IMG/VR virus record: IMGVR_UViG_3300011115_000934
Coordinates: 97,983-161,982 of that record
Strand: one strand, 5' to 3'
Source: a virus
Lineage: Duplodnaviria > Heunggongvirae > Uroviricota > Caudoviricetes
Length of the DNA: 64,000 nt
Below, piece by piece: positions 13,982 to 47,429 of the stretch (position 1 is the stretch's first letter; each line of letters begins with the position of its first letter). The position numbers were made by a program, and so were the translations under genes. Under the pieces are notes generated by a model that ran no database searches, was not told the origin of the DNA, and saw only the letters and a program-made list of their open reading frames with translations.

Positions 13982-14251
13982 ATGACATTACAAGAATTAA
14001 TTAATTTAGCAGGAGATAGAGACCTATCAAAATCATATCCAAAAGCAGATGGAGTTTACATCTGGGATTACAAATTACAATACAAGCAAGACTTTGAACT
14101 AGAATTGGTACTAATACCAAGCGACTCAAGTAAAGCAGGATTCAAAGACAAAGTATCAGTACAAGAGCTAATAGATTACGTTTTAGATCAATCTATATTT
14201 ACAGAATTAGAAATTGTAGGAGTAGAAGGATTAACAATAGCAAAAGTATAA
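13982..14251 (+). CDS. hypothetical protein
   Basis: 89-aa ORF. Confidence 0.5.
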   Translation: MTLQELINLAGDRDLSKSYPKADGVYIWDYKLQYKQDFELELVLIPSDSSKAGFKDKVSVQELIDYVLDQSIFTELEIVGVEGLTIAKV

Positions 14252-14252
14252 T

Positions 14253-21642: not shown

Positions 21643-23582
<1,940 letters not shown>

Positions 23583-28174: not shown

Positions 28175-28618
28175 ATGAAAAATGAATACAAAGGAACGAC
28201 CGTTTACGTGTATGCACTTCTAGACAGCAATGACAATCCAATCTATATTGGAAAATCTTCATCTCCTAAGAGTCGCTGCTACGGACACGCACAGCACTTT
28301 ACGGACAAAGTTGTAATGAAAATCTTAGATCGATACTATGATTTAGAGTCCTACTGGATTAGAAAGCTCCAAGAGGAGGGATACACTCTCCTAAACAAGG
28401 AGATTGATATGACTGAGGAGAGTTGGGAAGTGGGAGATCTTATTGAAATAAAGAAGCAAGCAAGAGTAGGAGTACTTCACACAACAACAGGAAATAGGTA
28501 TAAGAGTATATCCGAAGCTAGCAAAGCTTTAGGAATATCCTACAGTGCACTTCAGCAAACACTAAACTCCCCAACTAGACAACTATCCAATGAACATAAT
28601 GTAATCCGAGAAACATAG
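28175..28618 (+). CDS. GIY-YIG endonuclease with C-terminal HTH
   Basis: YVYALLDSNDNPIYIGKSS...R..H; C-terminal YKSISEASKALGISYSALQ (NUMOD1-like). Confidence 0.6.
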   Translation: MKNEYKGTTVYVYALLDSNDNPIYIGKSSSPKSRCYGHAQHFTDKVVMKILDRYYDLESYWIRKLQEEGYTLLNKEIDMTEESWEVGDLIEIKKQARVGVLHTTTGNRYKSISEASKALGISYSALQQTLNSPTRQLSNEHNVIRET

Positions 28619-30259: not shown

Positions 30260-30261
30260 TT

Positions 30262-31548: not shown

Positions 31549-32006
31549 TGGAAGAAAAAATGTCAATCTGTCCACATTGTGGAGGAAATGCTTGCTATGA
31601 ACAGCAAGTAAGCGAAGAAGTAACAACGAGCTTTTGCTTTGGTTGTGGATATTCAACTTCAACTCTAATGGTTGAGGGAGGAGAATTAGTAACCAAAACA
31701 CTAGAAGCATCACCGGAACTATATAAAGATCTTATGTTTATAAGTGAAGATAAAAAAGTTTGGTTCCCTTCAACAGTTACTCTTCCAAATAAAGGAATGG
31801 TATTCTTAGATGGAAATTCTAAAGACAGTTGGAAGTGGGCTGCAGTAAGCTCTATAGAGATTCTAGAAGAAGAGAAAGCAAAGTTCCCAAAAGGTCAGAC
31901 AACAAAAATGGATATGAAAAATATCAAACATTTTGACAAAGAAGACTTCATGGAAGCATTAGATGCTATCAACTTTTTTGATGTAGAAGTTGCAGAATCA
32001 AAATAG
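31548..32006 (+). CDS. zinc-ribbon protein
   Basis: CPHCGG...CFGCG. Confidence 0.45.
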   Translation: MEEKMSICPHCGGNACYEQQVSEEVTTSFCFGCGYSTSTLMVEGGELVTKTLEASPELYKDLMFISEDKKVWFPSTVTLPNKGMVFLDGNSKDSWKWAAVSSIEILEEEKAKFPKGQTTKMDMKNIKHFDKEDFMEALDAINFFDVEVAESK

Positions 32007-32024
32007 ATTTCGTATATTAATAGT

Positions 32025-32639
32025 ATGAAAATAAGTTATGCAATAACAGTTTGTAATGAATTGGAGGAAGTGAAAAGACTAGTCAACTTCCTCCTTTCCA
32101 ACAAACGAGAAGAGGATGAGATAGTAATACTTCTTGACCATTCAAATGGAAAAGATGAGGTATACAGGTACCTACTAACACTTCCAACCGAAGTACAGTG
32201 TAATAGAGATACATTCCAAGGACACTTTGCTGATTGGAAAAATCAACTAAACTCATACTGCAGTGGAGATTATATCTTCCAGATAGATGCTGATGAGATT
32301 CCTCATATCAATCTAATACAAAACCTACCTGAAATGCTGAAGACTAATGATGTCGATATGCTTAGAATCCCTAGAGTAAATACTGTAGAGGGCTTAACTC
32401 AAGAGCATATACAGAAGTGGGGATGGAATGTAAATGAAAAAGGATGGGTTAACTGGGCCGATTGGCAAATGAGAATATACAAGAATGCTCCTCACATTAA
32501 GTGGGTTAATAAAGTACATGAAGTATTAGAAGGATTTAAGATACACGGAATGCTTCCACCGGAAGAGGAATGGGCTTTATATCATCCAAAGACAATCGAC
32601 AGACAAGAGAAGCAGAATAATTATTACAACACTTTATAA
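32025..32639 (+). CDS. GT-A fold glycosyltransferase (family 2-like)
   Basis: N-terminal ISYAITVCNE..., DADE (DxD) motif. Confidence 0.55.
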   Translation: MKISYAITVCNELEEVKRLVNFLLSNKREEDEIVILLDHSNGKDEVYRYLLTLPTEVQCNRDTFQGHFADWKNQLNSYCSGDYIFQIDADEIPHINLIQNLPEMLKTNDVDMLRIPRVNTVEGLTQEHIQKWGWNVNEKGWVNWADWQMRIYKNAPHIKWVNKVHEVLEGFKIHGMLPPEEEWALYHPKTIDRQEKQNNYYNTL

Positions 32640-32647
32640 AATCAGTT

Positions 32648-33958
32648 ATGGATAGTATTTTAAATTTAGTACAAGAGTACATTACAAAAAAAGACAGTGA
32701 GAAGAAATGGGTAGCAGGAGAGGACTTAGTCCAATATGCAGGGCCTTACTTCGATGGCCAAGAAGCTCAGGCAGTTGTTAGGACTATGCTTGAAGGTTGG
32801 TTAGTTTTAGGAAAAGAAGGAGCAATGTTTGAAAGACGTTTCCCTAAGAAGCTAGGACAAAAGACTGGAGTTATTGTTAATAGTGGCTCAAGTGCTAATC
32901 TACTAATGATGTTAGCCTTAACATCTAAGAGAGGATTAAACCTACCAAAAGGTACAAAAGTAATTACTCCAATAGCAGGATTCCCAGCTACACTTAGTCC
33001 AACAATTCAAGTAGGCTTTACGCCAATATTTGTTGATATTGAATTAGAATCTCTAAACTTAGATCTAGATCAAGTAGAGCAAGCATGCATTGATCATCCA
33101 GATGCAAAGATAATTACTTTTGCTCACGTATTAGGTAATCCACCTAACATGGATCGATTAATGGAAATCGTAAACAAATACAATTTAATATTACTAGAAG
33201 ACTGCTGTGATGCTTTAGGAACAACTTACGATGGAAAGATGTTAGGATCATTTGGTAAAATGTCTTCATGTTCATTCTATCCAGCACACCACATTACAAT
33301 GGGTGAGGGAGGATTTGTAGCTTGTGGAGATGCTCATACAGAAAAGATTTTAAGAAGCTTTAGAGACTGGGGTAGAGGATGTTTCTGTCAAGGTAAAGCA
33401 AATGCTTTAGAATGTGGTTCCTGTGGAATAAGATTTAGTAACTGGTTGCCAAGTTTACCTAATGAGATCTTTGATCACAAATATACTTACGAAGAGATTG
33501 GTTACAACTTAAAGCCAACTGAGTTACAAGCAGCAATGGGTAATGTTCAGTTAGGTAAGTTGGAAGAGATTGGAGTACTAAGAAGAAGAAATCATAAAGC
33601 AATTGTTGATATCTTTAAAAAGTATGAGGACAAATTCATACTACCAAAGGCTACAGCTAAGTCAGATCCAGATTGGTTTGCAGTTGCATTAACACTAAGA
33701 GATGGAGTAGGGTTTACGAGATCTGAATTCTGCCAATACCTAGAGGCAAATAAGATTCAAACAAGACCATACTTCGCAGGTAACATTATGCTACAGCCAG
33801 GATACTCTCACTTAATTGATTCGAAAGAAGTAATAGAGAAGTTCCCAGTATCGAGAAAAGTAACAACAGATACTTTCTTCTTAGGATGCTCTCCAATTAT
33901 TACATTAGAACAAATTGAATATATTGGAACGATTGTAGACAAATTCTTCAACAAATAG
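32648..33958 (+). CDS. PMP-dependent NDP-4-keto-6-deoxyhexose 3-dehydrase (E1/DdhC-like) with Fe-S Cys motif
   Basis: DegT/AHBA-synthase fold; His replaces the Schiff-base Lys (SFYPAHHITMGEGG); CFC-x8-C-x2-C cluster (GRGCFCQGKANALECGSCG) like the E1 C-x-C-x7-C motif. Confidence 0.7.
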   Translation: MDSILNLVQEYITKKDSEKKWVAGEDLVQYAGPYFDGQEAQAVVRTMLEGWLVLGKEGAMFERRFPKKLGQKTGVIVNSGSSANLLMMLALTSKRGLNLPKGTKVITPIAGFPATLSPTIQVGFTPIFVDIELESLNLDLDQVEQACIDHPDAKIITFAHVLGNPPNMDRLMEIVNKYNLILLEDCCDALGTTYDGKMLGSFGKMSSCSFYPAHHITMGEGGFVACGDAHTEKILRSFRDWGRGCFCQGKANALECGSCGIRFSNWLPSLPNEIFDHKYTYEEIGYNLKPTELQAAMGNVQLGKLEEIGVLRRRNHKAIVDIFKKYEDKFILPKATAKSDPDWFAVALTLRDGVGFTRSEFCQYLEANKIQTRPYFAGNIMLQPGYSHLIDSKEVIEKFPVSRKVTTDTFFLGCSPIITLEQIEYIGTIVDKFFNK

Positions 33959-33959
33959 T

Positions 33960-34940
33960 ATGAGGATAGCATTTATGACAGAGATGGGGTTTGAGGGAAA
34001 GGTTCCCTCTAACCACTCTAACATGCGAACTGAGTTTGCTTGGATGCATACATTGGATGCTGACCACAAACACATATACAACTACAAAGAAGTAAAAGGC
34101 TATGATCACATCTTTATTATTTTTCCTAAAGGAAGAGTGTACTTAGATGCCTGTGGAAGTAGGTTAGTGGATCAAGTAAATCCTGTATCGGGATTACTAG
34201 CTTCAAATATAGTAGAGCAACTAAAACAGTATAACAAGAAAGTTTACATAGTACAAGAAGGTCCTCACTGGTTATGGAATGACTATGAGATGGCTGATCA
34301 GATTGAATTCTACAACATGCTTACATCTTCAGATGGTATCTTTGCACACAATGAACATGACGTAAAATACTATAAAGGAATGTTTCCTAACGTACCTGTG
34401 CACGTTATGCCTACTCTAATGATTGATTCTATAGTACAAGACATTCAACCTGTTACAGAGGAGAAAGTTATTATAGGAGGAAACTTTGCTAGATGGTATG
34501 GAGGAATGGAAAGCTTCACAGTAGCACAAAGATTACAAGTTCCAATATGGGGACAGACATCTCACGCAATGAGAGATGGAGAGGATCAATTAGTAAATCA
34601 TCTACCAAGAGTTATGTGGACAGATTGGATGAAACAACTAAGTTCATTCAAGTATGCTGTACATCTTATGCCAACCATAGCAGCAGGAACGTTTAGTTTA
34701 AATTGTGCTTACTTTGGTATTCCTTGTATAGGAAATGAGAAAGTAGACACACAAAGATTATGTCATCCAGACCTAGCAGTTGACGTAGAGGATGTAGATA
34801 AAGCAGCAATGCTGGCTGAAAGGCTGAGTTATGATGAAGAGTTCTACCAAGAGTGCAGCAAAACAGCTCAGGAGAATTATAAAAAATACTACAGCCAAGA
34901 GTTGTTTAAACAGAAAATAAATAGTATAATAGTATTATGA
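33960..34940 (+). CDS. hypothetical protein (sugar-island)
   Basis: 326 aa, no motif recognised. Confidence 0.5.
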   Translation: MRIAFMTEMGFEGKVPSNHSNMRTEFAWMHTLDADHKHIYNYKEVKGYDHIFIIFPKGRVYLDACGSRLVDQVNPVSGLLASNIVEQLKQYNKKVYIVQEGPHWLWNDYEMADQIEFYNMLTSSDGIFAHNEHDVKYYKGMFPNVPVHVMPTLMIDSIVQDIQPVTEEKVIIGGNFARWYGGMESFTVAQRLQVPIWGQTSHAMRDGEDQLVNHLPRVMWTDWMKQLSSFKYAVHLMPTIAAGTFSLNCAYFGIPCIGNEKVDTQRLCHPDLAVDVEDVDKAAMLAERLSYDEEFYQECSKTAQENYKKYYSQELFKQKINSIIVL

Positions 34941-37318
34941 TAGTACAAATAACAATGGTTAGGAATGAAAAATTCCTAATAGAAAAACTACTTCCTATAT
35001 GGACAAAATATGCAGATGGCTTTGTATTTTTAGTTGATACCTCCAATGATGGAACAGAGGAGTTTCTTAGAGAAGCAGCTAAGCAGTATAACATTCTGGA
35101 TATAATAGTTCAAGAAGCAGACGATAATACTTTATGGGTAGCTTCGGAAGTAAGACAAAAAATGTTTGACACAGCTAAGCAGTATACAAATAAGATAGTA
35201 TGTCTAGATGCAGATGAATATTTTGACGGTTCCATGACTAAAGAGGAATTAGAAAACACATTAGACTCACACCAAGATACCCTATTTGATCTGAGATGGG
35301 TTCAGTACACATCTACTAATACTATCAGAGTTGATGGCCCTTGGAAAAATAACACAAAAGGTAGGATAGGAGTGTTCAATAAAGAATACACCTTCAGGTA
35401 TGACACAATGCATGCAACTCACTTACCAATCCCACAGAACCAATACATGTTTCCTGAAGAGAGTTTGTTTATAGCTCATCTACAGTGGTTAGATAGAAAC
35501 ATAGTCGGAATAAAGCAGTACTGCTATAAAGTGCAAGACTATGCAAGTCATGTTAAGTTTGGAGCTAATGTTGTAGAAAAGGAGGCGTATGATGCTTCTA
35601 TAAATGATTTTAATTGGGAAGAGGAGTACTACAACTATCCACTTAAAATACAAGAAGACATTTACGAACACATGATTAATGGAGACTACTATAGAACAGA
35701 TATCATAAAACAGTATACAAAAGAATTAGATATTCCAAATTTAGGAGATTGGGGATTGAATATTCACGATAGTGTTCCAATGTACTTCTGTACAGGTGCA
35801 GATGAAAAGCACTATCCACTTCTACTAAATATGATAGGAAGTATTCATAAATATAACTTTTACGATACTGTAGAGATTAGAATATACGATTTAGGATTAA
35901 ATGAGAGACAGAAACAAGAACTGAAGAACCTAAAGAAAGTTAACATATACCAAGTAGAACAAACTAACTCAGAAATATTAAAAGATGTCCAGACAAATCC
36001 AACTAGATTTGTTAAAGGACTGTTCTCATGGAAACCAGTTCTAATAAAGGACTCACTGGACCACTGTCCGTACGTTCTATACCTAGATGCTGGAACTGAG
36101 ATAAGAAAGCCTTTGAATAGTTTATTTAAACATATAATTCAAAATAAGTATCTGTTTTTTGATTGTGGACATTCAATAAGATGGATGAGTACAGATTATA
36201 ATATTCAAAGTTTGGATCTACAATCTAAAGAAAATTCTTGGATACTTAAAGACGATACCTTTGGAGTTGATGCTGGGTTTATGGGCTTGTCGAGAGAAGT
36301 CTATGATGAGTTTGTACTACCTATGTATGAGCTATCTAAAAATCTTAAAAACTTCGAAGACAATGGTTCTTGCCCTGATGGATGGGGTTCAGGGAGACAC
36401 GACCAAACACTGTTTAGTATATTAGCTAGAAAACTAAACTATAGTATTATAGCAAGTAAGGATGATTACAAGGACTGTAAGTTAGTAGTAGATGGAAAGG
36501 ATATAGAATTTCACATTACTCATGCTAGAGCAGATGTTAAAGACAGTACAGTTGTCTATAGATCTAGGTGGGATTTGTCCTATAGTAAGTACAAAGACAA
36601 TGTAGCATCTATAAAAAGGGATTATATACTTTCTGTAATAACTGCTATAGGAAGTCTTAGTAAGTATGAGAAATTCTTAGAACAATACTTTGAGAATATA
36701 TTACAGCAAATAGGTTTCTCAAGATTTGAATTTATAATAGTATACAGTGAGTGGAGTAGTATTTTTGATAAGTACACTAACTATGTAAATATTAAGTTCG
36801 TAAAAGAAGATCAGCAGAAAGGAGTATACAATGCTTGGAACATAGGAATACTTAATTCAACTACAGAATACATTACAAACTGGAACGTAGATGACATCAG
36901 ATTTGATATCAGCACCATTACAAAGTACCATGCACTTTCTAAAAATATAAATACAGATTTAGCATACAGCTACTATATAGGAATAGATGAGAGTGAAATA
37001 GGCATAGTTGACCTGAATGAGCAGCAATATATTGAGTACCCTGACAATTTTCACGAGCAGGCCCTATCGATGTGTATGGCAGGTCCTGATCCAATGTGGA
37101 GAAAATCTACTCACATATTTTATGGATACTTTGATTATACCAACTATAGTATAATAGGAGATTGGGAAATGTGGGTACGGATGGCTAAGAATGGATTAAC
37201 CTTCACACTACTTCCTTACGTATTAGGTGTCTATGTAGATCACAAGGACACAGTTAGTAAGAGTAGTGAGGAAAAAGTGGAACAACAAAAACAAAACTTA
37301 CGAAGACAGTATACGTAA
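34937..37318 (+). CDS. 793-aa multidomain glycosyltransferase (several GT-A-like modules)
   Basis: N-terminal GT2-like segment (VFLVDTSNDGT, DADE) and further nucleotide-diphospho-sugar-transferase-like segments. Confidence 0.55.
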   Translation: MIVQITMVRNEKFLIEKLLPIWTKYADGFVFLVDTSNDGTEEFLREAAKQYNILDIIVQEADDNTLWVASEVRQKMFDTAKQYTNKIVCLDADEYFDGSMTKEELENTLDSHQDTLFDLRWVQYTSTNTIRVDGPWKNNTKGRIGVFNKEYTFRYDTMHATHLPIPQNQYMFPEESLFIAHLQWLDRNIVGIKQYCYKVQDYASHVKFGANVVEKEAYDASINDFNWEEEYYNYPLKIQEDIYEHMINGDYYRTDIIKQYTKELDIPNLGDWGLNIHDSVPMYFCTGADEKHYPLLLNMIGSIHKYNFYDTVEIRIYDLGLNERQKQELKNLKKVNIYQVEQTNSEILKDVQTNPTRFVKGLFSWKPVLIKDSLDHCPYVLYLDAGTEIRKPLNSLFKHIIQNKYLFFDCGHSIRWMSTDYNIQSLDLQSKENSWILKDDTFGVDAGFMGLSREVYDEFVLPMYELSKNLKNFEDNGSCPDGWGSGRHDQTLFSILARKLNYSIIASKDDYKDCKLVVDGKDIEFHITHARADVKDSTVVYRSRWDLSYSKYKDNVASIKRDYILSVITAIGSLSKYEKFLEQYFENILQQIGFSRFEFIIVYSEWSSIFDKYTNYVNIKFVKEDQQKGVYNAWNIGILNSTTEYITNWNVDDIRFDISTITKYHALSKNINTDLAYSYYIGIDESEIGIVDLNEQQYIEYPDNFHEQALSMCMAGPDPMWRKSTHIFYGYFDYTNYSIIGDWEMWVRMAKNGLTFTLLPYVLGVYVDHKDTVSKSSEEKVEQQKQNLRRQYT

Positions 37319-37331
37319 CAAACTATAGCTT

Positions 37332-38126
37332 ATGCAAAAAAATAAACTAAAAGTAGCAGTTTGCCTAAGTGGAGAAGTGCGCCACTTTACTCACGACCTT
37401 GTTGTAGAAGGTTTTCAAAAATACATACAAACTTGGAACCCTGATATATTTATCTCAACTTGGGACCACTTAGGTAGGTCAATGAATCATGAGTATATTT
37501 CACCAAGAGAATTAAAAGAGCAGCAAGAAGACTTAGAACTCTACATAAAACAGATCTACCCAGGAATTAAATCAGTTGAGATAGAAAACTACAATAGGTG
37601 GATAGATCACATGCCAAAAGACGAATATAACCTAGCCTATTCAGACCTATACTTCTCAAGGACAATTAATAGTTATACACAATTGTACAAAATATACAAA
37701 GCTAATAATTTAAAGATTTGTTATGAAAAAGAACAAGGGATCAAATATGATATTGTACTTCGTGTTAGACCTGATAACTTATTTATAAGACCACTCGCTC
37801 TAGAGGAAGTGCGGCAAAAAACTATCTACAATGTAAATCTAGGAGGTGAGGCTTACTACCCTAATCGCATCTATGATATGTTCTTTTATGGTGGAAGTAG
37901 TGAAATGGATATATTATGCAACTCTTATTTAAAATATAAAGAACTGCTATACTCACCTTTTAACAATGGACTCTGCCCTAGAGATACCTGCAGACTACTC
38001 TACCTACAGGCAACCAACTCAGGACTAAGTGTTGAATCAACTAAAGATAGGTCCTGTGATATATACAGAGGACAGACCTTTGAAGAGTACTACAACCTAT
38101 TGCAGAGTTGGGGAGGATTAGATTAA
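37332..38126 (+). CDS. hypothetical protein (sugar-island)
   Basis: 264-aa ORF. Confidence 0.5.
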   Translation: MQKNKLKVAVCLSGEVRHFTHDLVVEGFQKYIQTWNPDIFISTWDHLGRSMNHEYISPRELKEQQEDLELYIKQIYPGIKSVEIENYNRWIDHMPKDEYNLAYSDLYFSRTINSYTQLYKIYKANNLKICYEKEQGIKYDIVLRVRPDNLFIRPLALEEVRQKTIYNVNLGGEAYYPNRIYDMFFYGGSSEMDILCNSYLKYKELLYSPFNNGLCPRDTCRLLYLQATNSGLSVESTKDRSCDIYRGQTFEEYYNLLQSWGGLD

Positions 38127-38142
38127 TATAAACACATAAAAA

Positions 38143-39948
38143 ATGATAGCAGTTATACCAATGCTAGGCATAGGAGAACGTTTTGCAAAAAATGGATACT
38201 CTGAGAGCAAGCCTTTTATACGAGTAAATGCAGAGATCCTTATTACAAAGGTGGTTAGTAATCTGTATGAGCATTTTTCTAAAATAGTAATTATATGCAG
38301 TACTGAAAATGCTGAGCAGGTTAGAGCTCTGTTTGATGAAAGAGTTACGATTGTACAAAGTGCAGCACCTACTAGAGGAGCAGCAGAGACAGTTCTGCTT
38401 TCGTATTTAGAGTTAGGAGAACAAGAGCAAATAGTATGTATGGACTGTGATACAGTACTATCACAAGAAGCTTTGTGTAAATTACCACAAGTAGATAGTA
38501 ATGGTATTTTAAGTTTTCTAGACAAAGACCGTACAGGATTGTATAGCTACCTATCATTAGACAAAAGCAGAAACATATTAGAGATACGAGAGAAGGTTGC
38601 TATAAGCGATGTAGCAAATGCAGGAGTATATGTTTTTAGTAATAAAGAAATAATGAAACTTGCTTGCGAAAATGTACTAGAGCAAACAAACGAATTATAC
38701 CTTAGCAAAGCAATACAAACACTAATAGACCAAAACTACAAAGTAGTATCAGTAGACATCTCAGGAGAGTTTACATGCTACGGAACACCTTACCAATTGC
38801 AGAGTCAAGCTAGAAATGAAAGTAAAGATAAACAATTAACTCTATGTTTTGATATTGATGGAACACTTGTGTACGATCTCTACACCAACCCTACAGCAGT
38901 AACTAAAAATGTATTGTTCTGCAATCAGGCATATAAAAGTGGGTGCAAAATAATACTACACACAGCTAGAGGAATGTTATCAACAAATTCAAATGTTCAA
39001 GAGATAGAGGCAAAACGTCCTCACATAGAGAAAGTTCTTAAGGACTTAGGTATATGTTACCATGAGTTGGTATTAATGAAACCCTACGCAGACATCTATA
39101 TTGACGACAAAGCTGTACCAGCTTATAAGAATTTAGAAAAGGCAACAGGACTATATCTGTCAGAGGAGCATACAGCTAGAGCTCACAACAAGATTATTGT
39201 AAATGGAGATACTATTGAAAAACAAGGAAGCATTGAGGGGGAAGACTACTACTACAGAACACTCCCAAAGGATCTACAGAAGTACTTTCCAACAGTAGTT
39301 AGTACCACACCAGAGAGTATAGTGCTGTCTAGGATTGTAAAGCCTACATACTCGTCTCTATTACTTTCACAAAGACTTTCCAAGACAGACCTAGATATGT
39401 TAGTCGAGTCACTAAACGTAATTCACAACTTCCCTTCAGACAATATTGAAATAGATCTTAACTGGGCCTATGGTTCAAAGATTAAAGAAAGGTTTACTAA
39501 GTTTAGCTCTTTGTATAAAAAGTTAGGAGTAGATACTACTCAGTATGAGCAGTTGTGTGATGTTTGTTTTGATAATAAGTATGGACGCATACATGGAGAT
39601 ACTGTATTCACCAACATCTTTGCAGGAGATGCTAAGTGCAGCTTCATAGATATGAGAGGAGAGTGGGACAATAGGTTGACAGTTGGAGGAGACATATACT
39701 ACGACTTTGCCAAAGTTCTACAAAGCTTAACAGGATACGACTATGCATTACACAATGAACCTATCCAGAATGAATACCTAAAGAGCTTGAGAGAGCATTT
39801 TGTAGGCAAGCTATTGCAGATACATCCAACACTTTCAATAGACCAGTTGCAAAGTAAAGTTAGATTACTTTACATTTCGTTAATACCTTTTCATAGAGAC
39901 GATTTACAGAGGTGTGGTAGATTTATTAAGTTGCTAGACAGTATTTAA
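38143..39948 (+). CDS. tri-domain enzyme: sugar-/alcohol-phosphate nucleotidyltransferase + HAD phosphatase + APH/choline-kinase-fold kinase
   Basis: N-terminal AVIPMLGIGERF...KPF (DdhA/RfbA-like NTase), middle LCFDIDGTLV (HAD motif I), C-terminal IHGDTVFTNIF (Brenner HGDxxxxN kinase motif). Confidence 0.6.
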   Translation: MIAVIPMLGIGERFAKNGYSESKPFIRVNAEILITKVVSNLYEHFSKIVIICSTENAEQVRALFDERVTIVQSAAPTRGAAETVLLSYLELGEQEQIVCMDCDTVLSQEALCKLPQVDSNGILSFLDKDRTGLYSYLSLDKSRNILEIREKVAISDVANAGVYVFSNKEIMKLACENVLEQTNELYLSKAIQTLIDQNYKVVSVDISGEFTCYGTPYQLQSQARNESKDKQLTLCFDIDGTLVYDLYTNPTAVTKNVLFCNQAYKSGCKIILHTARGMLSTNSNVQEIEAKRPHIEKVLKDLGICYHELVLMKPYADIYIDDKAVPAYKNLEKATGLYLSEEHTARAHNKIIVNGDTIEKQGSIEGEDYYYRTLPKDLQKYFPTVVSTTPESIVLSRIVKPTYSSLLLSQRLSKTDLDMLVESLNVIHNFPSDNIEIDLNWAYGSKIKERFTKFSSLYKKLGVDTTQYEQLCDVCFDNKYGRIHGDTVFTNIFAGDAKCSFIDMRGEWDNRLTVGGDIYYDFAKVLQSLTGYDYALHNEPIQNEYLKSLREHFVGKLLQIHPTLSIDQLQSKVRLLYISLIPFHRDDLQRCGRFIKLLDSI

Positions 39949-40011
39949 TTTTGGATATTGTAGTGGTAGTTAAAGTAGTATTAAGTGTAAAATTATAATT
40001 TAAAATAGAAA

Positions 40012-40968
40012 ATGACAAAAGTAGTTTACATAACAGGTTGTTTAGGATTTATAGGATCTTACGTAACAAGAGCATGCCTCGAGAAAGGATGGTATGTTAA
40101 AGGAGTTGATAAGAAGACCTATGCAGCCAATAAAGATTTATTAAAAGAGTTTAAGGAGTATGAAAACTTTTCATTTGTAGATTGTGACATAAATGATTTA
40201 AAGTTTCTATACGACTGTGACTATATAATTAATACAGCAGCCGAGACGCACGTAGGCAACTCTATAATGAACTCAGACGTATTTGTACATTCAAACGTAA
40301 ATGGAGTTCATAACTTACTAGAGTTAATAAAAAACCATAGAGGAGAGAATGCAACCAAGCCTACACTACTTCACTTTAGTACAGATGAAGTATATGGAGA
40401 TATTGAGGAAGGAGAGCATATAGAAACTGATATACTTAAACCATCTAACCCATACTCAGCTACTAAAGCAGCAGCAGATATGTTAGTAACAGCTTGGGCA
40501 AGAACTTACAAGCTTCCCTATATTATAATAAGACCAACAAACAATTATGGAATAGGACAGTATGTAGAAAAACTAATACCTAAAGCCTGCAAGTACCTAA
40601 GACTTGGTAAAAAGATTCCTTTACACAATAATGGTACTCCAATCAGAAACTGGCTCCATGCTCAAGATACGGCTGAGGCTGTCATCACAATCATCGAATC
40701 AGGAGTACAGAATGAAATCTATAATATTTGTGGAGGATTTGAGCAAAATAATTTGGATACTATCAAAAAAGTTCTTATATTATATAATGAAAACAAAGAG
40801 CATGTGTTAGAGGATTTTGTAGACTTTTCATGTGACAGACAAGGACAGGATGTTAGGTATGCTTTGAATGATGATAAACTAAGAGCATTAGGATGGAAGC
40901 CTACAATCGACTTTGACTCAGAACTAAAACATGTTGTAAAGTATTATAGAGAAAAATTTATATGGTAA
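40012..40968 (+). CDS. NDP-hexose 4,6-dehydratase/epimerase (extended SDR)
   Basis: GCLGFIGS Rossmann motif, YSATK (YxxxK). Confidence 0.7.
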   Translation: MTKVVYITGCLGFIGSYVTRACLEKGWYVKGVDKKTYAANKDLLKEFKEYENFSFVDCDINDLKFLYDCDYIINTAAETHVGNSIMNSDVFVHSNVNGVHNLLELIKNHRGENATKPTLLHFSTDEVYGDIEEGEHIETDILKPSNPYSATKAAADMLVTAWARTYKLPYIIIRPTNNYGIGQYVEKLIPKACKYLRLGKKIPLHNNGTPIRNWLHAQDTAEAVITIIESGVQNEIYNICGGFEQNNLDTIKKVLILYNENKEHVLEDFVDFSCDRQGQDVRYALNDDKLRALGWKPTIDFDSELKHVVKYYREKFIW

Positions 40969-42716
40969 AAGTAAGTGATGTAATCGTTCAATACCTTAAG
41001 GCTAATAACATAGAAATTGTATTTGGGATAATTGGTTCAGCCAACTCTCACATATTCAATTCAATATTAGAAGAAGGGAGTATCAAATTGGTATCGGTAC
41101 ATCACGAACAAGCTGCTGTAATGGCTATGGGAGCTTACTATCGTTCAACTGGAAAGATGGCTGTTGCATTAGTAACAGCAGGAGGAGGAGCCTCAAATGC
41201 TTCAACAGGAATTCTTTCCAACTGGGCTGACTCTATTCCTGGAATTATTATCTCAGGACAGGAACAGTCGTATTACCTAGATGAGTACAGAGATATGAGA
41301 ATGTTCGGAGTACAAGGCTATGATGCAGTAAAGGCATATGAAAACTGTACTAAGATGTCGCATGTAATTACAGAAGATACTCTACATACAATAATGCCAT
41401 TCGCATTTGCTTTAACACAAGAAGGAAGACCAGGTCCAGTATTCTTAGAAGTACCCTTCGACGTTCAGAGTAAGATGGTAGAAGATAGAGGAGTACAGAT
41501 TGGAACAACCACCTTTACAAATCCTCACATATCCTCTAGTACCGATTACATACTAGCAGCACTAGCACAAGCAAAGCGACCAGTAGTGTTAGGAGGTCAC
41601 GGTGTTAAGCTGGCCAAAGCAGAAGGAGCTTTCAAACAATTTGTAGAAGAGTACAATGTACCAACAGTATTAAGTTGGTCAGCAGTGGACTTGCTTGATG
41701 ATAACAATCTAAACTATTTTGGAAGACCAGGAGTTCAAGGACAGAGAGCAGCTAACTTTATAGTACAGAACTCTGATTTACTAATTGTATTAGGAAGCAG
41801 ACTATCACTACTACAAACAGGATACAAGAGAGAGGACTTTGCTCCAAATGCTAATATTATTCATGTTGACATAGATGATGCAGAGATTAGAAAGTTTAAA
41901 GGAAAGAATATTGTAGCAGATGCTGGAGATATCCTTAGTAGCTTGAACTCTAAAGTAAGAGTTGAACTTGATATAGAGGAATGGATCACATACTGTAATC
42001 AAATCAAACAAAAGTATCCTTTGGTAATGCCTGAGCATTTAGCAGATCCTACTAATTCATATACATTTATTGATAAATTCTCACAAAAAGTACCAGATAA
42101 CTATACAATTGTTACTGATATGGGAACAGCATTGTTGAGTGGATTCTATGGATGGAGAATTAAACCTAACCAAAAAATGTTTACTTCTCTAGGATTAGGA
42201 GAGATGGGATACGGATTAGCAGCAGCAGTCGGAGCAGGGTTTGGACAAAGACCAGTGATGTGTTTAAACTGTGATGGAGGTATGATGATGAACCTACAAG
42301 AGTTGCAAACAATCAAGACACACAACCTTCCAGTAAAGATTATTATATTCAACAATGACGGATACCTAATGATCAAACATACCCAGAATATGTTATTCAA
42401 AGGAGCTCGTACTTGTGTAGATCAACAATCAGGAGTAACATTACCTGACTATAGAAAAGTAGCACACGCATTTGATTTTGAATACTTCACAGAGGATAGG
42501 GTAGATGACTTCCTAGCATTTGAAGGCCAGGCTATCATGGAAGTGTTTATGAACCCAGATCAAGAATTTATTCCTAAAGTAAGAGGAATGAAATTAGAAG
42601 ACAATACAATTCAAGCAGGACTGCTAGAAGAAATGTCACCACTACTACCATTAGAACAAATAGAACAAGCTATGGTTGCAGGTATTAATCAAAGAAGTAA
42701 AACAGTTGTAAGATGA
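40962..42716 (+). CDS. thiamine-diphosphate-dependent carboligase (acetolactate-synthase large-subunit/YerE-like)
   Basis: Three-domain ALS layout, GGGASNASTGI and TPP-binding GLGEMGYGLAAAVGAG...NNDGY. Confidence 0.8.
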   Translation: MVKVSDVIVQYLKANNIEIVFGIIGSANSHIFNSILEEGSIKLVSVHHEQAAVMAMGAYYRSTGKMAVALVTAGGGASNASTGILSNWADSIPGIIISGQEQSYYLDEYRDMRMFGVQGYDAVKAYENCTKMSHVITEDTLHTIMPFAFALTQEGRPGPVFLEVPFDVQSKMVEDRGVQIGTTTFTNPHISSSTDYILAALAQAKRPVVLGGHGVKLAKAEGAFKQFVEEYNVPTVLSWSAVDLLDDNNLNYFGRPGVQGQRAANFIVQNSDLLIVLGSRLSLLQTGYKREDFAPNANIIHVDIDDAEIRKFKGKNIVADAGDILSSLNSKVRVELDIEEWITYCNQIKQKYPLVMPEHLADPTNSYTFIDKFSQKVPDNYTIVTDMGTALLSGFYGWRIKPNQKMFTSLGLGEMGYGLAAAVGAGFGQRPVMCLNCDGGMMMNLQELQTIKTHNLPVKIIIFNNDGYLMIKHTQNMLFKGARTCVDQQSGVTLPDYRKVAHAFDFEYFTEDRVDDFLAFEGQAIMEVFMNPDQEFIPKVRGMKLEDNTIQAGLLEEMSPLLPLEQIEQAMVAGINQRSKTVVR

Positions 42717-43570
42717 AAATAAAAGTAGCAATTATTGGTACAGGTAATATCGGAACAGATCTATTACTGAAAGCCCTAAAGACAGACTTCATGGATGTAG
42801 TAGCATTTGTAGGTCGTAGGTTAGATTCGGATGGAATGCTAACAGCTAAGAAACATAGCATATTAATATCTGATCAAGGTATTCAATACTTTATTGATAA
42901 TCCAAATTGTTGTGATGTGGTATACGATTGCACATCAGCAGCAGATGCTATTGAGCATGCTAAGTTATTTAAACAACAAGGAATAAAAGTAATTGACTTA
43001 ACTCCAGCCAAGGTAGGAGATATGTGTGTACCGGATGTTAACTCTGAGATTATCTTAACAGATGGTAATGTTAATATGATTACTTGTGGAGGACAAGCTT
43101 CCATGCCAATGTTACACTTATTATCAAAAGAGTGTACAGGATTAGAATATATTGAAGTAGTCTCTCAAATTGCATCTAAGAGTGCAGGAATGGCTACAAG
43201 GATAAATGTAGACAACTATATCCAAACAACACAGAAGGCTATTGCAAAGTTTACAGGTTGTTCAAATAATAAAGTAATCTTAAATCTTAATCCTGCTGAG
43301 CCTTGTGTTGATATGCAAACAACAATCTTCATCAAAGCAAAGAAAGTTAATTTTGAAAACTTAACAGAGAAGGTTTTAGATAAGATTGAAGAGTTAAGAA
43401 CTTACATCCCTTACTACGAAATGGTTCTTCCTCCAACTATGAACGACAGTGGAGTAGTTGTAATGAGTATCAAAGTAAGAGGTACAGGAGATTACCTTCC
43501 AGCATATGCAGGTAACCTAGATATTATTAACTGTGCAGCAATTAAAGTAACAGAAAGATTAGTAAAATGA
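42713..43570 (+). CDS. acetaldehyde dehydrogenase (acylating), DmpF/MhpF-like
   Basis: N-terminal MKIKVAIIGTGNIGTDLL and catalytic-Cys loop ITCGGQASMP as in DmpF; ATGA overlap with the upstream TPP-enzyme gene. Confidence 0.7.
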   Translation: MKIKVAIIGTGNIGTDLLLKALKTDFMDVVAFVGRRLDSDGMLTAKKHSILISDQGIQYFIDNPNCCDVVYDCTSAADAIEHAKLFKQQGIKVIDLTPAKVGDMCVPDVNSEIILTDGNVNMITCGGQASMPMLHLLSKECTGLEYIEVVSQIASKSAGMATRINVDNYIQTTQKAIAKFTGCSNNKVILNLNPAEPCVDMQTTIFIKAKKVNFENLTEKVLDKIEELRTYIPYYEMVLPPTMNDSGVVVMSIKVRGTGDYLPAYAGNLDIINCAAIKVTERLVK

Positions 43571-44565
43571 GAAAAGTAATCATAACAGATTCAAGTCTTA
43601 GAGATGGAAATCATAGCGTTAAGCATACTATCAGTTTAGATAGTATAGCAAGGTATTGTCAATTTGCTGATAAGGCAGGAGTACCAATTGTAGAGGTAGG
43701 TCATGGAAATGGATTAGCAGCTTCTTCTCTACTTGTAGGTAAGTCTGTTAACACAGATGAGGAAATGCTAATAACTGCTAAAAACAATTTGAAGAATTCC
43801 AAACTAGGAATTCACATGATACCAGGACTAGCAACACTGGAACATACTAGAAAGGCTATTGACCTAGGAGTAGATGTAGTAAGAGTAGCAACACATTGTA
43901 CTGAAGCAACTTTGTCTAAGTCTCACATCGAAGCATTAGCAAAAGCAGATGTGGAAGTGTTCGGAGTGCTAATGATGAGTGCCTTGATCACTCCTCAGGA
44001 ATTACTAGAGCAAACTAAAATAATGGAAGGGTACGGAGCTAGGGCTATTATTATAATGGACTCTACAGGAACATACCTACCATTTGATGTACAACAAAGA
44101 ATCTCTTTACTAAAAAGCAACCTAAGCATACCAGTAGGATTTCATGCTCACAACAACTTAGGATGTGCAGTAGCAAATTCCTTAATAGCAGTAGAGTTTG
44201 GAGCAGATTATATTGACGGATGTATTAGAGGTTTTGGAGCTGGAGCAGGTAACGCTCCACTAGAACTTCTTATACCAGTACTAGAACAAAGCGGCTTCCA
44301 AGTAGGAATAAACTTTCAAGAGACAATCAAAGAAGCAGATAATGCAATGGACTACTTGGTTCCTTCAGCACCTATCACAACACCAATTAACATATTAACA
44401 GGACTTAAAAAACTATTCTCAGGATTTGAAAAGCCAATTGTAAGTGCTTCTAAACTATACGGAATAGAGTACTCATCTCTTATCTTTGAATTAGGAAATA
44501 GAAAGTTAGTAGCCGGGCAAGAAGATCTTATATTGGAAATAGCACAGAAGCTAAAAAAGAAATAG
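43567..44565 (+). CDS. 4-hydroxy-2-oxovalerate aldolase-like (DmpG/MhpE, DRE-TIM metallolyase)
   Basis: ITDSSLRDGNHSVKH metal-site signature; ATGA overlap with the dmpF-like gene. Confidence 0.7.
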   Translation: MRKVIITDSSLRDGNHSVKHTISLDSIARYCQFADKAGVPIVEVGHGNGLAASSLLVGKSVNTDEEMLITAKNNLKNSKLGIHMIPGLATLEHTRKAIDLGVDVVRVATHCTEATLSKSHIEALAKADVEVFGVLMMSALITPQELLEQTKIMEGYGARAIIIMDSTGTYLPFDVQQRISLLKSNLSIPVGFHAHNNLGCAVANSLIAVEFGADYIDGCIRGFGAGAGNAPLELLIPVLEQSGFQVGINFQETIKEADNAMDYLVPSAPITTPINILTGLKKLFSGFEKPIVSASKLYGIEYSSLIFELGNRKLVAGQEDLILEIAQKLKKK

Positions 44566-45477
44566 ATGAACGTAATCATTACAGGAGGTAATGGATTTTT
44601 AGGATCTAACATTGCTAGAAGGCTTTTAAAACAAAATCATAAGGTTTATATATTTTCAAACAATATAAATAACATAGAGGATATACTACCTGAGGTTATA
44701 TTTGACTATAGTGACACTAAGTCTTTGCCTGCCTTTGAAAAAAAGATAGAGACATTCTCACCAGACATAGTAATCCATTGTGGATGGAGTGGAGGAAATA
44801 GCTATGCAGATACAAACAGCGTAGATCAATTCTACGAAAATGTAGATCCGAGCATATCCCTACTACAGCTTTTAGGTAAACTTAACAAGAAGCCTAAATT
44901 TGTAGGCTTTGGAAGCTTTGCAGAATATGGAAACATTAGTACGCCAGTAAGTGAAGAAGTGCAGGAAATACCTACAAACTTATATGGACTCTCTAAATAC
45001 ACTTTTAAAAAGTATAGTGAGATGTTATGTAGCCGTTACGAAATGGAATGGGTATGGATAAGACCTTGCTACGTATACGGACCAGGAGATGTAAGCACAA
45101 GACTACTTCCTAGTATAGTAGCAAAATTTTTAAGTAATGAAACAGTAGTACTTGATGAGTGTACCTCCATTGCAGATTATATTTACATAGATGATTTTGT
45201 TAATTCAATTTATTTCCTTATATTAACAGAACACACAGGGGTATACAACATATGCTCAGGAAAGCAGTACAAGATAAGAGATATAGTTGAGCAAGTTCAC
45301 AAACAAGTAGGAAGCAGTAGCACTATTAAGTTTGATAGTACTTTAGCAAGATCCTCAACATATTCGTACATATGTGGAAGTAGGAGTAAGTTAGACAATG
45401 CTATAGGAAATCTAGAACAAATATCTTTAACTGAAGGATTAGAAAAAGTAATAATTAGTAATAAATTAAGTAAATGA
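44566..45477 (+). CDS. NAD(P)-dependent epimerase/reductase (SDR)
   Basis: TGGNGFLGS, YGLSKY (YxxxK). Confidence 0.7.
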   Translation: MNVIITGGNGFLGSNIARRLLKQNHKVYIFSNNINNIEDILPEVIFDYSDTKSLPAFEKKIETFSPDIVIHCGWSGGNSYADTNSVDQFYENVDPSISLLQLLGKLNKKPKFVGFGSFAEYGNISTPVSEEVQEIPTNLYGLSKYTFKKYSEMLCSRYEMEWVWIRPCYVYGPGDVSTRLLPSIVAKFLSNETVVLDECTSIADYIYIDDFVNSIYFLILTEHTGVYNICSGKQYKIRDIVEQVHKQVGSSSTIKFDSTLARSSTYSYICGSRSKLDNAIGNLEQISLTEGLEKVIISNKLSK

Positions 45478-46112
45478 AAAACGAAGTTGTAGAAAAAGAA
45501 GGAGGCTGGATTTGGCCTAAGAGTGACGAGAATAGTTGGGAAGGTCAGAACGAGCACAGTAGCCTTGCTAAATATGTACTCCCTTATGTAAAAAATAATA
45601 GAGTAATGATTCAAGCAGGAGGTAACTGTGGATTTATATTAAGTACCTTTGTTGAACACTTTGATAATGTATACACATTTGAACCAGACCCTATAAACTT
45701 TTACTGCTTAAATCAAAATGTTACTTCACCTAACGTTATTAAAATGCAATGCTGCCTAGGGAAGGAAAACTCACCAGTAAAAGTACAACAATTAGACAGA
45801 CCAGGAAGACTAAGAGATACAGGTGGAGTGCACGTAGAAGGGTCAGGAGTAACTCCTACCATTATTATCGACAACTTGAATTTACAAGCATGTGACTTAA
45901 TCCAATTAGATGTGGAAGGCTACGAACTTAATGCATTACTTGGAGCAGTGGAGACTATTAAGAAGTACAAACCAGTACTGTGTATAGAATTTTGTGAAAA
46001 ATGGCTAAACAGATACGAAACTACATCAAGTAGCATTGAAGCTCTTTTAGCTGAATTAAACTACAAGCATGTGGAATCGTACGGAGTAGATAGGATTTTT
46101 ATACCACAATAG
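45474..46112 (+). CDS. FkbM-family methyltransferase
   Basis: IQAGGNCGF SAM-binding motif, family-typical length. Confidence 0.55.
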   Translation: MKNEVVEKEGGWIWPKSDENSWEGQNEHSSLAKYVLPYVKNNRVMIQAGGNCGFILSTFVEHFDNVYTFEPDPINFYCLNQNVTSPNVIKMQCCLGKENSPVKVQQLDRPGRLRDTGGVHVEGSGVTPTIIIDNLNLQACDLIQLDVEGYELNALLGAVETIKKYKPVLCIEFCEKWLNRYETTSSSIEALLAELNYKHVESYGVDRIFIPQ

Positions 46113-46130
46113 TATATAGACTAAACAAAG

Positions 46131-47402
46131 ATGAAGCATCCAATTAGCTTTTGTATTAATACAGCAGTAAATGAATTAGACTACCTAAAACTACTACTAA
46201 AGTCACTAAAGGAGAACCTAAAGCACGACTACCATGAGGTAGTTGTGTTTATAGATTCGGATAATCAAGATACCTTCGAATGGCTACTTACTCAAAAATC
46301 AGAATTTAAAGATTTAAAAATACTTCGAAACATACTACCAGTATGCTATAGTCCGGTTAGGAATATAAATGAAATGTTTAAGTTTGCTTCTCATGAAATA
46401 GTTTCTTATATACAATCTGATATGGTTATTTGTAAGGACTATGACAAGTACTTACTAAAGCATATCAAGCCTAATATGATTCTGTCTAGTACTAGGATCG
46501 AACCACCATTGCATGGGCCTGGTTCCGAGAAGCACACTATGGACTTTGGGCTAAATCCTTCTGAGTTTCGCTATGATGAGTTTTTAAAGTATTGTGATGC
46601 AGTTAGAGAAGATAAGGTAACAAGTTACTACTTTGCACCATTCACCTTATATAAAGAGGTTTGGAATAAGATAGGAGGACAGGACACAACTTTTAGACGT
46701 TCAAGAGATGACTCGGATATCCTAAACAGATTTACACTCTCAGGAGTAGATATTGCTCAGACATGGGAAGCACTAGTATACCACTTTACTTGCACTTCAA
46801 GTAGAGGACAAGGTTGGTATGAAGCAGGTAATGCTAAGGCACAGGAGAAGGTACGGCTTCAAGCAAAAGCAGATGAAGTAGAATTAACCCGAATATTCAG
46901 GAAATGGGGAGAATTTAGTCATGGACATCCTGCACAATACTATTACAACATATCATCTAATATTAATATAGATGTTGAAGATGCAAATCTATATTCCAAT
47001 GTTGAGATGTTCTTTAGTAGGAATTACATAAATTCTCATAAGATGTATAACGCATTCATCAATCAGGACGAGCACGAGTACGCCAACATTCTGTATAACT
47101 ACTCAGATGAGCAGTGGAAAGAGTATAGCTATATGTGTAATCTACAAAAACTAGAAGATAGAGTTTGTGTAGGAGAACCACAAGGAGATATATTAGTTTC
47201 CTTCAACCTTAGCAGCATTACTCAAAATACATTTGATAATGTTCTAAGCAAACTACAACACATAGTGCATGAGGTAGAACCAGGAGAGTATGAGTTTGAA
47301 GGATTTACTTTTTCCATAAAAAATAAACGAAACATAATACAAGACAAACTAAAAGTAATCAACCCAGAAATAAAACCAGAACATTTGTACGAGGTGTATT
47401 AG
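46131..47402 (+). CDS. GT-A glycosyltransferase (family 2-like) with C-terminal extension
   Basis: ISFCINTAVNE...VVVFIDSDNQD. Confidence 0.5.
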   Translation: MKHPISFCINTAVNELDYLKLLLKSLKENLKHDYHEVVVFIDSDNQDTFEWLLTQKSEFKDLKILRNILPVCYSPVRNINEMFKFASHEIVSYIQSDMVICKDYDKYLLKHIKPNMILSSTRIEPPLHGPGSEKHTMDFGLNPSEFRYDEFLKYCDAVREDKVTSYYFAPFTLYKEVWNKIGGQDTTFRRSRDDSDILNRFTLSGVDIAQTWEALVYHFTCTSSRGQGWYEAGNAKAQEKVRLQAKADEVELTRIFRKWGEFSHGHPAQYYYNISSNINIDVEDANLYSNVEMFFSRNYINSHKMYNAFINQDEHEYANILYNYSDEQWKEYSYMCNLQKLEDRVCVGEPQGDILVSFNLSSITQNTFDNVLSKLQHIVHEVEPGEYEFEGFTFSIKNKRNIIQDKLKVINPEIKPEHLYEVY

Positions 47403-47429
47403 AACATAAACTATTTATAATAAAAACAT

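Follow-up and report, generated by a model that had tools for sequence, protein, structure and literature searches.

A phage-borne carboligase, dehydrogenase and aldolase gene set with a probable role in branched deoxysugar synthesis

Within a 64,000-nucleotide stretch of a Caudoviricetes genome (IMG/VR record IMGVR_UViG_3300011115_000934, positions 97,983 to 161,982; "the window" below denotes this whole stretch), three overlapping genes encode a YerE-like carboligase dependent on thiamine diphosphate (ThDP), a DmpF-like acylating acetaldehyde dehydrogenase and a DmpG-like class II pyruvate aldolase. We consider it probable that this trio corresponds, in a phage, to the ErwJ/ErwI/ErwE module of bacteria, and that it belongs to a pathway leading to an erwiniose-type, acyl-branched ten-carbon sugar. 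The chemistry and the gene set are already known from bacteria (Steitz et al. 2022, PMC9306805); as far as we could find, what has not been described is their location in a phage, their setting beside an RmlB-type dehydratase with no E3 gene, the exchange of donor modules among related cassettes, and a His/Phe signature in the aldolase. A literature search for phage occurrences of the trio gave nothing relevant, and a 2025 review of these ThDP enzymes calls viruses unexplored (PMC12247030); the present case carries into viruses a route to sugars with long branches that was recently discovered in bacteria.

The bacterial precedent and the phage trio

In Pectobacterium atrosepticum SCRI1043, four adjacent genes, ErwE, ErwF, ErwI and ErwJ, lie beside genes for CDP-4-keto-3,6-dideoxyglucose and encode, respectively, a ThDP enzyme (WP_011093010), a reductase, a BphI-like aldolase (WP_011093013) and a BphJ-like dehydrogenase (WP_011093012) (Steitz et al. 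2022, PMC9306805). In vitro, ErwE joins 4-hydroxy-2-oxopentanoate, strongly favouring the R form, to aldehydes as well as to a ketone sugar analogue, and rejects pyruvate; the sequence proposed for erwiniose runs from ErwJ through ErwI and ErwE to ErwF, an order in which the aldolase acts after branching having been explicitly tested and rejected, and the scheme has been extended to caryophyllose (the HpcH-type aldolase MMAR_2331 with MMAR_2332) and to gastriose (PMC9306805). A preliminary description of the window had credited DmpF- and DmpG-like enzymes with no known role in making deoxysugars and had seen in the trio the sign of a new route; both statements are superseded by that report, in which the exact gene set is already described for erwiniose. 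The preliminary suggestion of a higher-carbon, branched deoxysugar as the product of the trio agrees with an Erw-type gene set.

By its published description, the Erw system resembles the window in placing a YerE-like carboligase, a BphI-like aldolase, a BphJ-like dehydrogenase and an NAD(P)H reductase (in the window a candidate one) side by side near genes for a 4-keto-3,6-dideoxyhexose (in the window a predicted acceptor), and the two would share the logic of building a gamma-hydroxy 2-oxo acid and then transferring it decarboxylatively to a C4 ketone. The window differs in being phage-encoded, in its RmlB-type dehydratase rather than one of the CDP-glucose type, in carrying no cytidylyltransferase, E3, Wzx or Wzy, in the addition of an FkbM-family methyltransferase, in a different short-chain dehydrogenase/reductase (SDR) as the candidate reductase, and in the CDG motif of its ThDP enzyme.

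The window is AT-rich (about 35% G+C), with nearly all of its genes on the plus strand, and the trio occupies positions 40962-42716 (carboligase, 584 residues), 42713-43570 (dehydrogenase, 285 residues) and 43567-44565 (aldolase, 332 residues) of that strand. ATGA overlaps at both junctions (42713-42716 and 43567-43570), read directly in the sequence, bear out the translational coupling described earlier. Coupling reaches beyond the trio: the upstream 4,6-dehydratase gene (40012-40968) shares 7 nt with the carboligase gene, the start codon of the downstream SDR gene, at 44566, adjoins the stop codon of the aldolase gene, and the end of the SDR gene at 45477 overlaps a methyltransferase open reading frame (ORF) that starts at 45474.

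The carboligase contains the three ThDP Pfam domains (TPP_enzyme_N/M/C; E 1e-27 to 1e-32), a cofactor-activating Glu49 within VHHEQAA and the ThDP motif NCDGGMMMN at residues 436-444. Its PDB matches rank JanthE first (8RPH; E 1.8e-150), then 5AHK (1.3e-75), which we take to be PpYerE, and then acetohydroxyacid synthases (AHAS), a ranking that supports the YerE-like nature ascribed to it from the start. Identity to JanthE, the closest solved homologue, is 44%, with residues 2-583 of the phage protein aligning to JanthE 7-612, C-terminal extension included; NCDGGMMMN is identical in the two, and the CDG motif is common to the phage enzyme, JanthE and all 92 of the 92 aligned homologues. An assignment as an AHAS of the IlvB/IlvI type was rejected: the AHAS NCBIfam models score far under their cutoffs (TIGR00118, for example, 308 bits versus 538). 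Among the window ORFs, none encoding an AHAS small subunit adjoins the gene.

JanthE, from Janthinobacterium sp. HH01 (PDB 8RPH, 8RPI and 8RPJ), has been investigated for use in biocatalysis. This bacterial YerE-like lyase accepts ketones and is unusual in its CDG motif, and its physiological substrates were reported as not yet identified (PMC12188165, PMC12247030); it takes 4-hydroxy-2-oxovalerate as donor (PMC12188165). The phage enzyme differs from it at two of five reported hot-spot residues (Y268 to Q and P293 to L, if the numbering is shifted by one residue). Products of ThDP genes in Rugamonas rivuli (locus L076) and Duganella sp. (locus L075) share 98-99% identity with JanthE; in these loci, in the region from about 8700 to 14700, the JanthE-like gene stands between an E1 dehydrase gene and homologues of DmpF and DmpG. 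This neighbourhood points to 4-hydroxy-2-oxopentanoate and a 4-keto-3,6-dideoxy sugar as the natural substrates of JanthE, and would thus offer the JanthE/CDG clade a likely physiological donor.

The two partner enzymes are equally recognizable. The dehydrogenase exceeds the cutoff of TIGR03215, acetaldehyde dehydrogenase (acetylating), at 322 bits versus 282, carries the Pfam domains AcetDehyd-dimer and Semialdhyde_dh, and matches PDB entries 7Z3S (1e-73), 4JN6_B and 1NVM_B; the aldolase exceeds that of TIGR03217, 4-hydroxy-2-oxovalerate aldolase (339 bits versus 286), combines an HMGL-like domain with the C-terminal DmpG communication domain (DmpG_comm, PF07836; 8.9e-16), and matches 8IH7, 4JN6, 1NVM and 4LRS at E 1e-65 to 1e-71. 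Pfam, NCBIfam and PDB thus bear out all three family identities given in the preliminary description, and at the level of sequence the matches to solved structures (E 1e-70 to 1e-150) settle the folds of the trio proteins. We looked for loss of the DmpG metal ligands or the DmpF cysteine and found every such residue present on alignment: Cys125 of the dehydrogenase lies in the motif ITCGGQAS, its Cys motif being kept in 89 of 89 homologues, and R12, D13, H16, H193 and H195 of the aldolase are intact, as is its motif LRDGNHS. Because the fold, the metal ligands, the catalytic His/Arg and Cys, the communication domain and the adjacent, coupled genes all match those of DmpFG, BphIJ, MhpEF and HsaFG, an aldehyde-channelling aldolase-dehydrogenase complex is likely; the gene order, dehydrogenase before aldolase, is also the same.

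That likeness invites a different reading, namely that the genes are catabolic auxiliaries: a DmpFG pair from a meta-cleavage pathway would cleave 4-hydroxy-2-oxovalerate to pyruvate and acetyl-CoA for host energy, next to an acetolactate synthase. Automated annotation returns just these names (4-hydroxy-2-oxovalerate aldolase, acetaldehyde dehydrogenase, acetolactate synthase), and the equivalog cutoffs passed above are those of the catabolic enzymes. We nevertheless find this reading very improbable. No meta-cleavage hydratase, hydrolase or dioxygenase lies near the trio, which, unlike the E. coli mhp operon, is embedded in and coupled to sugar genes, its neighbours being only sugar-nucleotide enzymes and glycosyltransferases; the dehydrogenase and aldolase are 35% and 38% identical to E. 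coli MhpF and MhpE, respectively, versus 45-55% to homologues in bacterial sugar loci; and the carboligase has no adjacent AHAS small subunit and scores far higher against JanthE than against any AHAS. Relative to the known DmpFG-type complexes, the phage pair is thus set apart by its biosynthetic context, its predicted reverse flux and its low identity, and also by replacement of the residue pair Leu87/Tyr290 (BphI numbering), by His and Phe respectively. Calls of mhpE, mhpF and ilvB in viromes are likely to mark glycan genes of this kind rather than auxiliary genes for aromatic degradation or amino-acid synthesis.

These two positions govern stereochemistry in BphI, which is strictly 4S-specific: the Y290F variant loses stereocontrol, and the L87N/Y290F and L87W/Y290F variants are 4R-specific (PMC3962088). 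In the window aldolase, His83 takes the place of Leu87 and Phe284 that of Tyr290. Among 154 sugar-locus aldolases (79 viral and 75 bacterial), the first position is His in every case, and the second is Phe in 137, His in 16 (one viral subgroup) and Tyr in none; Leu and Tyr occupy the two positions in E. coli MhpE, 8IH7, 4LRS and 4JN6. In DmpG (1NVM) the first is likewise Leu, and the second, Tyr291 according to the literature, falls outside the span of the alignment. Since the His/Phe signature resembles the engineered L87N/Y290F pair and matches the need of ErwE for the R acid, we infer that it fits a biosynthetic, 4R-forming aldolase, and it speaks against a captured catabolic enzyme. Such a natural signature may mark 4R-selective DmpG-type aldolases more widely, which would be of use in biocatalysis.

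A proposed route and competing donors

Set beside the erwiniose scheme, the genes suggest the following route. The DmpF-like enzyme is predicted to run reductively, converting acetyl-CoA to acetaldehyde, which would pass to the DmpG-like aldolase and be condensed with pyruvate to 4-hydroxy-2-oxopentanoate of predicted 4R configuration. The CDG-type ThDP enzyme would decarboxylate this keto acid, and the 3-hydroxybutanoyl carbanion so formed would attack an NDP-4-keto-3,6-dideoxyhexose at its C4 carbonyl. For this acceptor, the RmlB-type dehydratase would make the 4-keto-6-deoxy intermediate and the E1 dehydrase the 3,6-dideoxy-4-keto form. The downstream SDR probably reduces the side-chain ketone, the FkbM enzyme may O-methylate the product, and glycosyltransferases of the cassette would install the ten-carbon sugar on an acceptor. 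The route builds on the gene identities, the intact catalytic residues, the tight coupling and the co-conservation of the genes across bacteria and phages; the direction of flux, the donor, the stereochemistry and the acceptor are predicted from the published biochemistry of ErwE, ErwI and ErwJ and from the residue signature. The two- or three-carbon donor suggested in the preliminary description is not the best choice, and we prefer a five-carbon 2-oxo acid that delivers a four-carbon (3-hydroxybutanoyl) unit. A Stetter-type addition at C6, which would extend the chain, was considered and dropped, the published scheme explaining the pattern of deoxy and hydroxy positions.

Several points weigh against this assignment. 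JanthE, the closest characterized homologue, is promiscuous, accepting pyruvate and other short 2-oxo acids as well (PMC12188165, PMC12247030), so that transfer of a two-carbon unit is conceivable from sequence. ErwE may have a GDG motif, in which case the phage enzyme may belong to a sister clade. The prediction of 4R configuration leans on an engineered Asn/Phe variant, not a His/Phe one. Lastly, the window has no E3, no glucose-1-phosphate cytidylyltransferase and not the 255-residue SDR of most phage cassettes, which makes the nucleotide of the acceptor, the completion of 3-deoxygenation and the reduction step uncertain.

The promiscuity of JanthE bears on the possibility that the phage carboligase acts as YerE itself does. 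In the YerE/YerF pathway to yersiniose A (Yersinia pseudotuberculosis), as in the route proposed here, a 4,6-dehydratase and E1 act upstream, ThDP-dependent branching occurs at C4 of an NDP-4-keto-3,6-dideoxyhexose, and an SDR reduces the product; YerE, however, uses pyruvate, giving a two-carbon branch, and works without a partner aldolase or dehydrogenase. On this alternative the phage enzyme would draw its unit from pyruvate and form a yersiniose-type acetyl branch, the DmpFG pair being accessory, whether in supplying or removing acetaldehyde or pyruvate or in acting on the acetyl branch once it has been transferred. Two sibling phage cassettes (L124 and L128), in which the ThDP gene is followed directly by the 255-residue SDR gene with no aldolase, resemble the simpler yersiniose form and imply that a common metabolite is enough for the scaffold to function; the window does not share that form. 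Pyruvate, however, is abundant, which would make a dedicated, coupled aldolase-dehydrogenase pair unnecessary, yet the pair adjoins the ThDP gene in all 79 of the 79 viral loci that carry it. The rejection of pyruvate by ErwE, and of an order in which the aldolase follows branching, tells in the same direction, as does the motif of the ThDP enzyme: CDG tracks the presence of DmpG in 154 of 154 cases, and the enzymes paired with HpcH aldolases have GDG. We therefore regard a pyruvate-derived acetyl branch as unlikely.

A variant of the erwiniose-type route, in which another acyl-CoA or aldehyde gives a longer or functionalized branch, or in which the acceptor is not 3-deoxygenated, seems to us distinctly unlikely too, although parts of it have some basis. 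BphI-type aldolases take aldehydes of several lengths under the control of residue 89 (PMC3962088), a position at which the window aldolase has Ile instead of Leu, and ErwE also converts four- and six-carbon hydroxy-keto acids (PMC9306805). For the acceptor, the window encodes no E3, and in a second group of viral loci (group B, below) the DegT protein that accompanies the trio shares only 31-33% identity with the E1-like protein of the window. Against such a change of substrate, the residues of the aldolase pocket are nearly invariant between the phage loci and bacterial loci that encode E3 together with DdhA and DdhB. Nor need the missing E3 signify a different acceptor: E1 homologues, SpnQ among them, are served by general reductases of the cell.

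Relatives and the exchange of donor modules

The same three-gene arrangement, which the preliminary description had proposed to seek in bacterial surface-polysaccharide loci, is common there. We scanned one genome per bacterial species; counts refer to the best 80 loci, Pectobacterium not among them, with trio partners sought within 10-kb flanks. The ThDP enzymes of these loci are 42-58% identical to that of the phage and come from Bacteroidota, Proteobacteria, Leptospira, Armatimonadota, Acidobacteriota, Actinomycetota, Omnitrophota and others; both partners accompany them in 75 loci, an E1 homologue in 57 and DdhA in 63. An example is the locus of Flavobacterium aquidurense, a standard O-antigen or capsular polysaccharide locus that encodes an E3-like reductase, glucose-1-phosphate cytidylyltransferase (ddhA), CDP-glucose 4,6-dehydratase (ddhB), an SDR, the ThDP enzyme, dehydrogenase and aldolase, a further SDR, RfbH/E1, Wzx and a glycosyltransferase.

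In IMG/VR, 78 viral loci hold a relative of the ThDP gene (43-89% identity), 69 of them with both partners, and both partners also accompany it on 10 of 10 metagenomic phage contigs; in all 69 and 10 loci carrying both, a partner gene lies at most 300 bp from the ThDP gene. Metagenomic homologues of the ThDP enzyme form at least 120 clusters at 68% identity or more, on contigs that carry the block dehydratase, ThDP enzyme, dehydrogenase, aldolase and SDR, usually with an E1 gene, against a phage-like background: some have flanks like those of Flavobacterium phage vB_FspM_immuto, others RecA-like and 2OG-Fe(II) oxygenase genes. The possibility that the trio was a captured catabolic fragment, not co-conserved with sugar genes, was looked for in these data, and the trio proves to be co-conserved with the sugar genes in related phages. 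Among deposited phage genomes, tblastn searches of 50,697 records with the aldolase and the ThDP enzyme returned only bacterial contamination at less than 36% identity, and none of these genomes carries the trio.

Phage and bacterial cassettes differ in the sugar-nucleotide genes. An RmlB-type dehydratase at least 55% identical to that of the window occurs in 49 of the 78 viral loci versus one of the best 80 bacterial loci, and the phage cassettes never carry DdhA; the nucleotide carrier in the phages is probably different from CDP. The single bacterial locus with the phage-like dehydratase (70% identity; ThDP enzyme 58%) lies on a 6.6-kb contig of an Ignavibacteria metagenome-assembled genome (L012), which is probably a phage contig binned with a bacterium.

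Sibling phage cassettes keep the dehydratase, the ThDP enzyme and the SDR while the donor module changes. Besides the aldolase-free form, three loci (L154, L155 and L170; about 11700-14750) have, instead of the DmpFG pair, two HpcH/HpaI aldolases, a 386-residue 4Fe-4S protein and a 125-residue protein, and the ThDP enzymes there show the canonical GDG motif, not CDG; this module probably gives a different, longer branch. They recall caryophyllose and gastriose synthesis (MMAR_2331 with MMAR_2332; MygI/MyGE), in which, as in the route proposed for the window, an aldolase makes the donor and a ThDP enzyme transfers it; the window differs in having aldolase and dehydrogenase of the DmpFG rather than the HpcH type, and its expected branch has four carbons, not six or seven. 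The match of motif to aldolase type across these loci suggests donor-specific co-evolution of the two enzymes, for which the exchanged modules offer a natural set for study.

Two further loci (L002, 8821-9993; L003, 880-2052) carry a split E1 alpha/beta ThDP enzyme (E1_dh and Transket_pyr domains) between the dehydratase gene and the YerE-like gene, and such a phage may perform two ThDP-dependent C-C couplings. The split enzyme resembles the two-carbon branching enzymes of antibiotic sugars. In group B (L126-L153 and L160-L164), the order is dehydrogenase, then ThDP gene, then aldolase on the opposite strand, and the aldolase has His at both stereo-determining positions. Some group B contigs are labelled GVMAG (giant-virus metagenome-assembled genomes), although they are short, about 6 kb, and possibly misbinned.

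A replaceable glycan cassette

The window derives from a relative of the Flavobacterium phage immuto mentioned above, a 160-kb myovirus of the genus Immutovirus. In a local blastn comparison with immuto (MW353175), collinear matches stop at 32641 and resume at 47407, the DNA between them showing no homology to immuto, and we conclude from this break that the trio sits in a replaceable glycan cassette of 14.8 kb (32642-47406); at the same site immuto has a different sugar cassette of about 7 kb, with WecE-type aminotransferases, a methyltransferase and a PglD-like protein. The conserved left flank (28817-32639, plus strand; Pfam and PHROG assignments) encodes two GT1 glycosyltransferases (480 and 428 residues), a 152-residue protein and a GT2 glycosyltransferase (204 residues), which are 92%, 89%, 89% and 59% identical to immuto_90 to immuto_93. 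From left to right, the cassette encodes the E1 dehydrase, a 326-residue protein, a 793-residue multi-GT2 protein, a 264-residue protein, a nucleotidyltransferase-HAD fusion, the RmlB-type dehydratase, the trio, the SDR, the FkbM methyltransferase and a GT2 glycosyltransferase, the genes described below all lying on the plus strand.

The first of these genes (32648-33958, 436 residues) confirms the neighbouring E1 3-dehydrase of the preliminary description: it matches 3BCX and 3BB8, enzymes of the PMP/[2Fe-2S] 4-keto-6-deoxyhexose 3-dehydrase type, over its full length (E 1e-102) and keeps the AHH histidine motif, SFYPAHHITMGEGG and the Cys-rich insertion. Its homologues are 95-99% identical in close phage relatives and about 41% identical in bacterial loci. 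The dehydratase (40012-40968, 318 residues) is of the RmlB type, scoring 2.9e-92 with TIGR01181 versus 1e-19 with the CDP-glucose dehydratase model TIGR02622, and all of its PDB matches are dTDP-glucose 4,6-dehydratases, the best being 2HUN (4e-69). Between them, the 601-residue fusion (38143-39948) joins an N-terminal sugar-1-phosphate nucleotidyltransferase (PF00483, 1.1e-7) to a segment like HAD-type capsule-biosynthesis phosphatases (TIGR01689, 1.6e-5) and a C-terminal domain with no assigned function; it also matches PHROG 3980, 1238 and 24015 and, weakly, PDB 9IQW and 4EVW. Presumably it supplies the NDP-hexose.

Downstream of the trio, the extended SDR (44566-45477, 303 residues; Pfam Epimerase, 8.5e-38) is the candidate branch ketoreductase, in the role of ErwF or YerF. 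Its best PDB match, 2PK3, is GDP-6-deoxy-D-lyxo-4-hexulose reductase, an NDP-4-ketosugar reductase; it is 53% identical to a 306-residue SDR of L155 and only 26% identical to the non-orthologous 255-residue SDR encoded behind the aldolase in the majority of phage cassettes, no homologue of which was found in the window apart from this ORF. In the window and its nearest relatives (L094, and L093 and L114, with 89% ThDP-enzyme identity), the 303-residue SDR and the FkbM-family, S-adenosylmethionine-dependent methyltransferase (45474-46112, 212 residues; PF05050, 4.3e-12; TIGR01444, 3.1e-14) stand in place of the 255-residue SDR, and the two occur together in 22 viral loci; the methyltransferase probably O-methylates the sugar or its side chain. 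The last cassette gene, a GT2 glycosyltransferase (46131-47402, 423 residues; PF00535), is a candidate for transferring the branched sugar, and homology to immuto resumes at 47407, just past its stop codon.

Pfam and NCBIfam scans of the cassette ORFs found no Wzx, Wzy, E3 or cytidylyltransferase, and tblastn with bacterial E3 and DdhA proteins gave no match in the window. The 326-residue protein (33960-34940) was considered as a substitute for E3 and rejected; it has no redox domain, its one faint hint being of a WsaF-like glycosyltransferase. A PHROG search gave no functional information on the unassigned cassette proteins. The segment 33964-39987, which spans the 326-, 793- and 264-residue proteins and the fusion, is an indel relative to the close IMG/VR contig L093, where it measures 1.8 kb, from which it appears that sub-modules of the cassette are exchanged independently.

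Taken more broadly, it is conceivable, though we would not call it probable, that aquatic phages carry a recombining glycan island in which swapped donor modules (no aldolase, DmpFG, two HpcH aldolases with the 4Fe-4S protein, or an added split E1 alpha/beta ThDP enzyme) give rise to a family of acyl-branched deoxysugars. The window would then specify a hitherto undescribed O-methylated, erwiniose-type ten-carbon sugar on a dTDP or UDP carrier, made with no dedicated E3, that decorates the virion or re-dresses the infected cell, the island acting as a phage 'serotype' locus. The biological question this raises is what a lytic Flavobacterium phage glycosylates with so elaborate a sugar. A second, sugar-based modification of DNA is a less likely target, because the window already carries genes for DNA modification with 7-deazaguanine.

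These genes (10972-11433, 12994-13788, 16842-17483 and 17464-18264) encode homologues of immuto QueD (81% identity), QueE (91%) and GTP cyclohydrolase I (50%), together with a DpdA-like protein of distant similarity (27%); neither QueC nor QueF was found in the window. Their presence suggests that a 7-deazaguanine derivative takes the place of guanine in the phage DNA. Elsewhere in the window (21643-23582, 3830-4972, 28175-28618 and 12170-12988) lie genes for GroES and GroEL homologues (named after the immuto annotation) and for an RNA ligase that has an OB-fold domain of the PHA02142 type, and two ORFs like GIY-YIG homing endonucleases, one just upstream of the glycan island and the other beside the QueE gene.

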